A DNA stretch of 64,000 nucleotides from Schmidtea polychroa (GCA_044892525.1 CM097888.1:73904001-73968000); one strand, 5' to 3'; positions 4,352 through 7,300 are shown, counted from the stretch's first letter. The notes: a model not told the origin generated them from the sequence alone. Numbers and translations are program-made.

Positions 4352-7300
4352 TTACCAGGTAAGCCTAACCTATTTCTTCTTTCAATTTCTGCGCTCGTTG
4401 GATCGATTCTCTCACACTGTAGTGCAATGTTCTCAACTGGCTTCATTTCTATCAATTTATCTACCGGATATGCTGGTAGTGGTTGTATAAATGATTTTGG
4501 TATGCATAATCTAGTGAATGTATCCTGGTTGCCATCATTAGAAAATGATTCCTTTATTAGTTGATAAATTTTCCATGTATCGGCTTGATTCCGTTCCTCC
4601 TCGTATGACGGTGCCGATTCCCCGATGTTCTCGTTGTCACTTTTGTCCTCATTAGAAGTAGTGGTTACATCAACATAACTTACCTTTCTCTTTTTCGTTA
4701 ATCGTGCTTTCAACGTTTCCAACTCTCGATATTGATGATGTGTTATAAAAAATCTGGCTAACAATGGTATACATCCAATAACCAACTTCCACGACAGACT
4801 TGTAATAGTGTATAATCTGTGTGTTGATAACACCTGCGAAACTATTACTTTAATCATGATTCCAATCACATATATTCCGATTAATCCCGCACAGGCTTGC
4901 CCGATAAACATAAATTTTCCCCAAATCTTTTTCATCGTATTAAACGTCGCCTTTTTGTAATGATCCACTGTTAATAAATAGTCGTAATTCACTTTTCCAG
5001 TTCCACTCGGGAGAATAGTGTCTACTATTTCCGTTATTACCCTTTCCTTTTTCGAGGGGAATAATAAGTTTCTGCGTGCTGCTTCAATATCATCACTTGA
5101 ATACATTCCACTTTGAGTCATGCTGTCTAGCGATGTAAAGTTAATTAGATATTCTAATTTTGTCAACTCCAATTTTTCTGGGACTTTCACCCCTCTATGA
5201 TCAGGTAGTGCAATCCATGATTCGGGCGTCAGGCGGTATAGTGGAGCCAATAATCTGTTGCACTGCAACGCTCTCGGTTTCGCGTCCTCCTCCAATAAAA
5301 TTCGTGTCACCGGCTCCATGAATCGTAGCTTCCCATTAACATTCACAGGCAGTTCATTTGTGCATTGATTGTATTTCATCAATTTAATAGGTACTGCCTT
5401 GCATTTATAACTATATAAGGCTTCACCAAGCATTCGAGCGAATACTCCATTCTCCGAAATCAACATTGGAGCAACTAGATTCGGGTTCGTGATAGCCATC
5501 GCCATTCTGTTTCGCAGGATTTCTTTGTTTAATTTGCAATCATTTAGTATGATTTCCCTGTACACACTTTCAATTGTATCTTGGCTAAAATGAAATAAAT
5601 AGTCAATCTTATTATTGAAATAGTTCGTTAGTTTAATTTCCTCTGCGTACAATTTTGTTTGAGCTTCTTCGACAACTTTCTTGGATAAATAAATTCCTTT
5701 ATAATTGGTCTCATAAACAGTTTGTCCACACTTCGTATTTACGCTCTTCCTTAAGAATCTCATCCCATCGTTTGGGGACATTGCCATTAAAACCGTTGGC
5801 GTTTTCTTCAAGCGTATCGGTGTGATTCTAAGTGTCATATTCATGACTGAGTTTAGCACTGTGCTTTCTGGTCTCTCTTGGATCTGCTCTCCCGTTATCT
5901 CTTTAAAAGGCATTGATTTTAAATGTGCTAAATTGCATTTTTTGGTATCAACTTCATATACCAGAATTGACTCACCTGTGTTGCAGCTTTTCTCCCTCAT
6001 GTTACAAAATGGATGGGTTTGCAATTTTCCCGTATCGTCATCGAATGATCCATCAAAATACCTTAATTCGGTTTCATATTCTTCTATCACGACGGTTTTA
6101 TCAATGACTGTTTGTCCTACTTTATACGCTTCACCCTCGCAATCGCCATTTGCCTTGATTATCCCCTTAACTGCTATAGTTTCACGAATTTTATAGTTTA
6201 ATTTAGCCTTCAAATTAATTTCTGAATTTATTTTCAGCTCTCCTGTTTGGAACGCTGCCAAACAGTTTTCCCGTGTCACCTCTATTACTCTTGGAATTGA
6301 GTGCATTTTGATTAATGACGAATGGCTCCATTTGCCACAGTAGAATATAAACGTAGTTCTTTTTGCTGTGCATTCTCTCACTTTCACTCGTCTAAATCCC
6401 GCTTCTTGGTATACGTGGTATGTAACTTCATTTGCCCATTTTAAGTTCCTCGGATATGCGTCTGGACACTCTGCTACATCTACTAGCGAATATACTTTTC
6501 CCATTTCTGTCTGGGAGCAATCGTACGCTACCAAGGACGTTGTGGTATTAATAACTCCTAAAATCACCAAAATAGACATGGTTAGCCATGGAAACATTAT
6601 TTTCCCTCTTTTCGGCTCATAATTTCTTCCAGTTGTCGCCGTCTCCGACTTTTGCACCAAGTTTTCCCATCCTCCATTACGCATAATCCAACCCGTCACA
6701 TATGTAATCGCCACTTCGGTGGCTTTTACTATCCATTTTTCCGATTTATCGCATTCCAAGCATCCATATACGCCAATTTCTAGAACAATATAAGCAAGGA
6801 CTGTTAGTACCACGTCTCTGTTCAGACCGTTCCTGATTAATCTCTTGACTACTGTTTCATCGCAAAATACCCTCTCTATGGTATTATCCTTTAGTACTAC
6901 TGGAAGCCGACTTTTTAATACCGCTGCAAGCTGATGTATGAGTTCATCGTCACAACTATTTCCTTCTTCCAGTGCATATAATTCTGTTACTAACCCTTTC
7001 AAAATTGATTCTGTTTGAGACATATTATTCAGATCCGTTTTTTCAACCACATTGGAATCTATTCTATCGTTCTCTTCGTTTCCACCCATTAATTCGATTT
7101 TACACCGCTTTCGACCATTCAATTTACTTTCCGCTTCTACAAAATTCGACTCACTTTTCACTCTTTCACTCACTAGTAGCTCGTCGGTTATATGGTTAGT
7201 TTCCTGATTTACTGAATCATTTTCGTCCACCTCCTCACTCGTAATTTCGTCTTGCTCGTCATTTATGCCTTCATCTTTTGGGTCATGCTCTTCTAACTCG

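Follow-up and report, generated by a model that had tools for sequence, protein, structure and literature searches.

Two published descriptions come closest to the element reported here. In the sections of their 2019 paper drawn on here, Arkhipova and Yushenova describe the planarian element Burro as a single polyprotein in which Gag is followed by a BCL2-like motif and then by an env that precedes the protease; the hits of this env were fusion glycoproteins from mononegaviruses of arthropods and fish, and the authors called it the first case of an in-frame env between gag and pol (PMC6431247). Burro1 is reported to have an IAP domain with a protective effect on stem cells (Lee et al. 2026, as given in part in PMC13465017). 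Chary and Hayashi, in the passages of PMC13524379 available to us, report elements of flatworms, nematodes (citing Sacco et al. 2022), and bryozoans that have only a gB-type Env and follow the order GAG-ENV-POL. This Env class is modeled there as five-domain gB-like trimers, six Schmidtea mediterranea families are listed, with 215 copies given for Smed_errantivirus_2, and the extent to which such elements are infectious is said to remain unclear.

On the basis of its sequence, we file the element found in a 64,000-nt stretch of Schmidtea polychroa DNA (the window) as a further member of this described flatworm group with gB-type Env, and not as Burro proper. Like the members of that group, it has env between gag and pol, is multicopy, and is bounded by LTRs. 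The same passages of PMC13524379 assign Smed_errantivirus_1 and Smed_errantivirus_2 an HSV/gB-type ENV of cysteine type C1a, and both resemble the window element in Gag-Env-Pol order, multiple copies, and a length of about 15 kb. The CGKWSH motif and the cysteine positions of Smed_errantivirus_2 also correspond to those of the window Env, and a gapless hand count, made on Env alone, gave 183 identical residues out of 251 (73%). The window element differs in coming from another genome and in a divergence at the level of families. Bcl-2, a polyprotein, fibronectin, and a second membrane protein are not mentioned in those passages.

Burro (GYPSM1), as presented in the parts of PMC6431247 used here, shares with the window element a Gag with three CCHC knuckles, a BCL2-like region, and an env followed by protease, reverse transcriptase (RT), RNase H, and integrase, all in a single polyprotein. 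However, the window family encodes about 3,330 amino acids in 14 to 18 kb, compared with 4,873 amino acids and over 30 kb for Burro, and a Pfam scan of an intact sister ORF detected none of the Burro cargo domains MATH, BIR, ankyrin, and dUTPase at E ≤ 0.01. The Burro env was likened by HHpred to the gypsy/baculovirus type, whereas the window Env is of the Monjiviricetes/gB type. Because the Burro core is present but its size and cargo are absent, we did not class the element as Burro.

A stop-free ORF of 1,109 amino acids on the minus strand encodes Env (4306-7635; ORF scan of the window). The initial annotation had proposed a chuvirus- or gB-type glycoprotein from seven motifs, and a motif search recovered all seven in a single open frame of that strand: LVAYDC (6534-6517), YSLVDVAECP (6492-6463), CGKWSH with C-x10 directly before it (6339-6322), YFNNKIDY (5622-5599), VYREIILNDCKLNKEILRN (5565-5509), GEALYSYKCKAVP (5427-5389), and WGKFMFIGQACAGLIG (4923-4876). 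The span it gave, 4743-6534, comprises the mature ectodomain and two C-terminal hydrophobic stretches, leaving the signal peptide (about 6597-6535) outside. Hydropathy scans placed this internal signal peptide at 6535-6597 of the minus strand, as a hydrophobic stretch directly before the AYDC motif, an arrangement found in every family examined. The ectodomain itself (4924-6534) has 537 amino acids with 14 cysteines and is stop-free, in line with the intact ectodomain initially proposed; it is followed by the two hydrophobic stretches (4744-4923; mean hydropathies, 2.37 and 1.57) and by a cytosolic tail that leads, through a linker, to the protease (4330-4743). This last part matched no Pfam family, and there is a frameshift near 4329 in the window copy.

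The Env ORF matched the Pfam family Monjiviricetes_fusion (PF24664) with 299.7 bits against a cut-off of 27 (E = 4.1e-89), and positions 4744-6534 alone did so with E = 5e-86, which is far above chance. The parts of a PF24664-type protein are all present: signal peptide, cysteine-rich ectodomain, and C-terminal membrane anchor (hydropathy scans and alignment). Aligned with the glycoprotein of Wufeng shrew chuvirus 2 (P0035), Env was 24% identical over 611 columns, from end to end of the ectodomain, and the alignment continued through both C-terminal hydrophobic stretches. Among 111 aligned homologs, 11 of the 14 ectodomain cysteines were kept in at least 90% of rows. A chuvirus-related, gB-type glycoprotein is upheld. 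Best hits to a baculovirus F-type env had been named as the outcome that would speak against it; no F family was among the Pfam matches of the Env ORF at E ≤ 1, which consisted of Monjiviricetes_fusion, BDV_G (0.02), and GyrB_insert (0.05), and we rejected a baculovirus F-type or errantivirus class I Env for that reason.

Structural relationships were sought with the 111-sequence Env profile, which returned 33 PDB matches at E ≤ 10, all but one of them (32/33) to herpesvirus gB. These matches covered the central helix and the following strand, with an ARMLG[DE]...C motif (ARMLGD in PRV gB and ARMLGE in the window Env), at E values of 0.04 to 1.8 that individually fall below significance. The likeness to gB in this profile search is suggestive, not significant, and we infer a class III fold from family membership together with these weak matches. 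With the Env ORF as a single query, the PDB search gave centrin (E = 0.015) and Bcl-xL (E = 2.3) and nothing else; the centrin hit was dismissed as a chance match to the stalk.

The element that contains this Env is of the Ty3/gypsy type, as the initial annotation had it, with LTRs, a primer-binding site, gag, and a gypsy-type order of protease, RT, RNase H, and integrase. The parts listed in this paragraph are on the minus strand. The readable part of the 5' LTR (9820-10793, 974 bp) has an inner end that reads CA on the element strand, and its outer end runs into a stretch of Ns, where a target-site duplication is unreadable. The 3' LTR lies about 18 kb past the left edge of the window, and the two LTRs differ at 3 of 974 sites (99.69% identity). 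Seven nucleotides after the LTR is a primer-binding site (9795-9812), recognized from its sequence, which appears to resemble the 3' end of tRNA-Trp; a tRNA gene search found no tRNA gene in the window. The gag part (7612-9633) comprises a capsid, three CCHC knuckles, and a linker (Retrotrans_gag, E = 2.4e-08; zf-CCHC, E = 6.8e-10), and comparison with a sister copy revealed a frameshift near 9545 in the window copy. A second frameshift near 7612 separates gag from an acidic linker (7042-7608) that matched no Pfam family and is fast evolving, with 46% identity and a dN/dS of 0.35 to the nearest subfamily. A profile search pointed to a Bcl-2-like helical domain at 6634-7041, with RNGLN (BH1-like) and WIMRNGGW (BH2-like) motifs. 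Downstream of Env, positions 1979-4351 encode a protease (4303-4037; gag-asp_proteas), an RT (3376-2900; RVT_1, E = 1.3e-33), and an RNase H (2638-2324; RT_RNaseH, E = 1.2e-39), with a frameshift near 1994, and positions 846-1997 encode an integrase with H2C2, core, and GPY motifs (Integrase_H2C2, E = 3.5e-19; rve, E = 2.1e-11). The location of Env upstream of pol, noted initially, is correct; its presentation as unusual does not hold up as a novelty, since an in-frame gag-env-pol layout has already been published for flatworms in the portions of PMC6431247 and PMC13524379 used here. In frame after the integrase, positions 1-845 encode a second type I membrane protein, with a signal peptide at about 845-777 and a beta-rich ectodomain containing a possible fibronectin type III (FN3)-like motif. 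Its Thr-rich stalk and transmembrane segment fall immediately beyond the window, and a Polinton-like insertion truncates the protein there in this copy. BEL-type families were absent from the Pfam matches of the four ORFs of the element, and a BEL/Pao host element was rejected on this ground and on its gypsy-type domains.

Comparison with the sister copy showed that the four apparent ORFs of the window copy are fragments of a single ORF, separated by frameshifts near 9545, 7612, 4329, and 1994. The window copy is a recent but dead insertion. The initial annotation had overlooked that Env belongs to one polyprotein, as well as the defects that this copy carries beyond its ectodomain. We rejected a stand-alone env gene, as Env sits inside one polyprotein ORF in the sister copies. 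That the host has adopted this env copy as a gene, for a fusogen or a restriction factor, might be argued from the 1,100-amino-acid frame, which starts with a Met (7608) and stays open to the end of Env while its neighbors are broken; we rejected a domesticated copy and regard it as highly improbable, given LTRs that differ at 3 of 974 sites (an insertion too young for retention to count), an Env equally stop-free in 81 of 89 scored copies, and a frameshift that has exposed Met 7608, an internal residue.

Several other mobile sequences were observed around the element. The insertion that cuts the last codons of the polyprotein is a 13.3-kb Polinton/Maverick-like sequence (L017:6488-10000 and L016:1-9804) with 3.4-kb inverted repeats (98.6% identity), AGTAGT...ACTACT ends, and a 6-bp target duplication. 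Its ORFs resemble by eye a protein-primed DNA polymerase and capsid proteins, and Pfam supported only endonuclease VII and RING. The element itself was inserted in a long (ATT)n microsatellite (L017:1700-1995), and another copy lies in a 369-bp tandem satellite. Elsewhere in the window, a fragment of the LTR (10407-10487) recurs with 75% identity 27 kb away (37377-37457), the second stretch probably being an old, related LTR, and decayed ORFs resemble by eye a DNA transposase (15688-17047), a Penelope-like RT/endonuclease (38602-40237), and a piggyBac-like fragment (19708-20082).

We searched the organism's own genome (781 Mb in four large contigs) with env and scored the best 89 of 2,847 candidates, a selection that biases the following shares upward. 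Identity to the window env was 98 to 100% in 20 of these copies (the window copy and 19 others at 98 to 99%), 88 to 90% in 8, and 76% in 61; env was stop-free in the matched part in 81 of the 89, and 10 of the 89 had env within open frames of 3,329 to 3,361 amino acids. Together with the LTR identity of 99.7%, the many copies at 98 to 99% indicate recent mobility of the Env family. Domain order was read in three intact sister ORFs, one per subfamily. The ORF of about 3,330 amino acids begins with Gag, the acidic linker, the Bcl-2-like domain, the signal peptide, Env, and its anchor, and continues with protease, RT, RNase H, integrase, a second signal peptide, the second ectodomain, a Thr-rich stalk, and a transmembrane segment; in one of these ORFs, the second signal-like stretch did not exceed the hydropathy threshold. 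The span from outer LTR end to outer LTR end in three sister copies was 14.4 to 17.8 kb. Families with 71% and 39% Env identity have the same domain order. The latter is a second autonomous family (L061-L066, L074, and L075) whose ORF of 3,051 to 3,090 amino acids reads Gag-Bcl-2-Env-Pol-membrane protein, with Env 39% identical and further unannotated ORFs of 300 to 700 amino acids in the 3' region. One sister copy (L018:1-2291 with L026) has tandem 5' LTRs, one of them about 90% identical, adjoining a decayed related env. Contigs of sequencing runs were uninformative about expression: one run, which is RNA by guess only, covered 30 of 30 bins, and two others covered 5 to 6 bins, mostly LTR.

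Selection was estimated by the method of Nei and Gojobori from one unsaturated pair per domain, most deeper pairs being saturated. Between the window copy and the 90% subfamily, dN/dS was 0.031 for the Env ectodomain (dS = 1.6) and 0.028 for RT-RNase H (dS = 1.1); the second membrane protein (0.13), the Bcl-2-like domain (0.24), and the acidic linker (0.35) had higher values. Purifying selection on Env is as strong as that on RT. These values bear on whether the glycoprotein is a dead passenger that appears open only because its insertions are young. The window copy is, after all, defective, young copies stay open regardless of selection, and 11 near-identical copies gave dN/dS values of 0.13 to 1.06 on very few changes. 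At the level of the family, however, the idea is refuted and we give it next to no credence: between subfamilies with dS above 1, Env retains 90% identity with a dN/dS of 0.031, and it is stop-free at 71 to 90% identity across four lineages.

A search of the sequence library with Env recovered 1,434 relatives at E ≤ 0.001. Among 20 listed relatives that were scanned, 11 share the architecture of the sister ORFs, with an aspartyl protease downstream of Env; in P0070, Env is preceded by DUF5641, which we take to be a BEL-associated family. We built a quick unrooted tree of 65 Env sequences: 5 of our own, 15 database rows labeled gag-env-pol (4 of the 15 labeled from upstream context, without a protease match), and 45 others, leaving out fragments under about 380 amino acids and lower-ranked stand-alone relatives. 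A single branch (SH-aLRT, 100) had all 20 gag-env-pol rows, with three unlabeled fragments (426 to 492 amino acids), on one side. On the other were 42 mostly stand-alone glycoproteins of about 650 amino acids, including that of the chuvirus and P0070. When RT and Env trees were compared for 10 elements, two strongly supported outer groups were common to both, and the disagreements fell in weakly supported places, such as the position of the 39% family. Three further features of the database relatives were noted. In P0009, P0010, P0011, P0013, P0016, and P0020, Env is followed by two or three domains of the aspartyl-protease-like kind; P0009 has by eye one more such domain after the integrase; and the complete env-pol polyprotein P0014 is entered in the database as a hypothetical protein from a Flavobacteriaceae metagenome-assembled genome, likely through contamination of the bin with animal sequence.

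The initial annotation had proposed an independent capture of the glycoprotein. Glycoproteins of the Jingchuvirales and their BEL/Pao captures, as described in parts of PMC7642597 and PMC10084718, have the same Pfam family, a collinear ectodomain, and the same cysteine skeleton as the window Env, and this clear homology, along with an Env clade apart from the BEL/Pao-linked P0070, is what a recent chuvirus capture by this element would have in its favor. Yet the Jingchuvirales-type sequences are only 20 to 29% identical to the window Env, they occur as stand-alone genes of about 650 amino acids or after a BEL-type integrase region, and they occupy a separate branch of the Env tree. Env identity is 24% to the named chuvirus glycoprotein, against 71 to 90% to other families of this genome and 37 to 44% to database polyproteins. 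Because the gag-env-pol Envs fall on one side of a single branch and the RT tree's two strongly supported groups reappear in the Env tree, the sequences fit an env that was acquired long ago and inherited with pol rather than captured by this element. With the gag-env-pol layout also already in print, a recent independent capture is largely refuted and strikes us as very unlikely. This env is separate from the insect BEL/Pao-type and chuvirus sequences, but it was inherited within an old clade with env before the protease and is no new capture.

Assignment of the domain at 6634-7041 was less direct. No Pfam family matched it in the window copy. Searched alone, it aligned with Bcl-2 and Bcl-xL over BH1-BH2 at E values of 0.7 to 1.9; with a nine-sequence profile these became 8e-4 to 2e-3, although three designed helical proteins scored slightly higher. 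In relatives, the same slot matched Pfam Bcl-2 at E values of 2e-05 to 1e-03, all below the curated cut-off, including the 39% family (E = 2.1e-05) and P0012 (E = 9.6e-4). The first Atlas match was Bcl-2-like protein 15 (0.80), which serves as a lead only. The canonical NWGR motif of BH1 has been lost, Trp-Gly-Arg being absent. We take the domain as a diverged Bcl-2 homolog, of the kind already noted in Burro, with a putative activity. Many Pfam Bcl-2 matches in this genome sit in Polinton-like elements, near an A32-type ATPase and integrase (L071, L072, and L073), with one above the Pfam cut-off (L072:4778-5233). Given these Polinton-like matches besides the LTR element, Bcl-2-like cargo is found in two unrelated mobile classes of this genome.

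The second membrane protein is possibly a variable, FN3-like protein, judging from weak scores (one of eight sequences matched Pfam fn3, at E = 0.062; contactin-1 FN3, E = 0.23). It had no homolog at E ≤ 0.001 among 955 longer candidates, no Pfam family, and no usable Atlas match, and a six-sequence family profile gave no PDB match. By eye, the 39% family, P0009, and P0014 likewise show a signal-ectodomain-transmembrane pattern after the integrase, P0021 shows a signal-like stretch, and these ectodomains appear to share an L-x-P-x-T-x-Y-like motif. The family profile recognized none of the tails of P0009, P0014, P0021, and the 39% family above shuffled sequences, of which 15, 200, 200, and 24 of 200, respectively, scored as high; only position, topology, and motif suggest that these tails are kin.

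The genome also contains a family without env and pol, with an open ORF of 1,323 to 1,333 amino acids (L029:1718-10000 with L030; L027, L032, L033, and L038). Besides Gag and the Bcl-2-like domain, it retains the signal peptide of Env and a portion of the second membrane protein. In protein sequence, its interior is 35 to 66% identical to the window element, whereas the LTR in L029 matches that of the window at 99.3%. The region of the env-deletion junction was spanned by all 40 scored matches (the best 40 of 135 candidates). Between two copies, dN/dS was 0.54 for the whole ORF (three of five segments were parsed), and the Bcl-2-like domain had 4 nonsynonymous and 2 synonymous changes, too few to inform. 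Because this env-less derivative spreads in the same genome, env is not required in cis for copying. The literature searched gave no description of the second membrane protein or of the env-less derivative; the primary papers on Burro, Repbase, and Sacco et al. may describe them.

We think it probable that the glycoprotein is the envelope of a gag-env-pol Ty3/gypsy (Metaviridae) element of the flatworm errantivirus/Burro kind, made within one polyprotein and likely acting as a class III (gB-like) fusogen through which particles enter other cells. The polyprotein would thread the ER membrane cotranslationally at its two internal signal peptides, leaving Env and the second ectodomain lumenal and the Gag/Bcl-2-like and Pol parts cytosolic but tethered to the membrane. 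This topology needs one membrane crossing from the two hydrophobic stretches after Env. As with the membrane-proximal region of gB, we infer one net crossing for the pair in Env; if both stretches crossed, Pol would be lumenal and the proposed topology would be broken. Signal peptidase would cut before AYDC, freeing the Env N terminus and leaving the Env signal peptide as a C-terminal tail anchor on the Gag/Bcl-2-like part. A C-terminal membrane anchor is the usual anatomy of Bcl-2 proteins. The protease of the element would then free the cytosolic parts. Gag, Env, and Pol would be made at 1:1:1 and meet on one membrane, where Env would trimerize, enter budding particles through a tail made in one chain with Pol, and, once the particle had budded, bring about its fusion with another cell.

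The 1:1:1 ratio of Gag, Env, and Pol from one ORF is unlike that of retroviruses, and selection on Env reveals that it has a function, not which kind. Env might instead work away from free particles, in cell-cell or intracellular fusion or as a tether for Gag and Pol, so that the element would spread by contact or within the cell. We give this a minor share of the probability: the whole Env ectodomain, cysteines included, is as tightly conserved as RT, which a mere tether would not need.

Beyond particle entry by a gB-type envelope, the parts of the element can tentatively be read together, at fairly low confidence, as those of endogenous enveloped viruses that have a conserved gB-type fusogen and a fast-evolving FN3-like attachment protein, both cut from one polyprotein, together with a captured Bcl-2 homolog, tail-anchored by the Env signal peptide, that would protect producer cells from death, and with an env-less parasite bearing its helper's LTR. 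On this joint reading, the fusogen before pol and the attachment protein after integrase would parallel the gB and receptor binders of herpesviruses, and the parasite family would have kept exactly the module of Gag, Bcl-2-like domain, and anchor. The layout of the element is already known; what may be new are the post-integrase membrane protein and the env-less derivative. If the second membrane protein is an attachment partner, the element would have a split entry apparatus, produced through a polyprotein strategy, for which we found no description in the literature searched. That Env is held as tightly as RT argues for an envelope in active use. A young, high-copy family in animals with RNAi and somatic stem cells would be a good setting in which to ask whether a gB-type Env renders invertebrate retroelements infectious, the question raised in PMC13524379.
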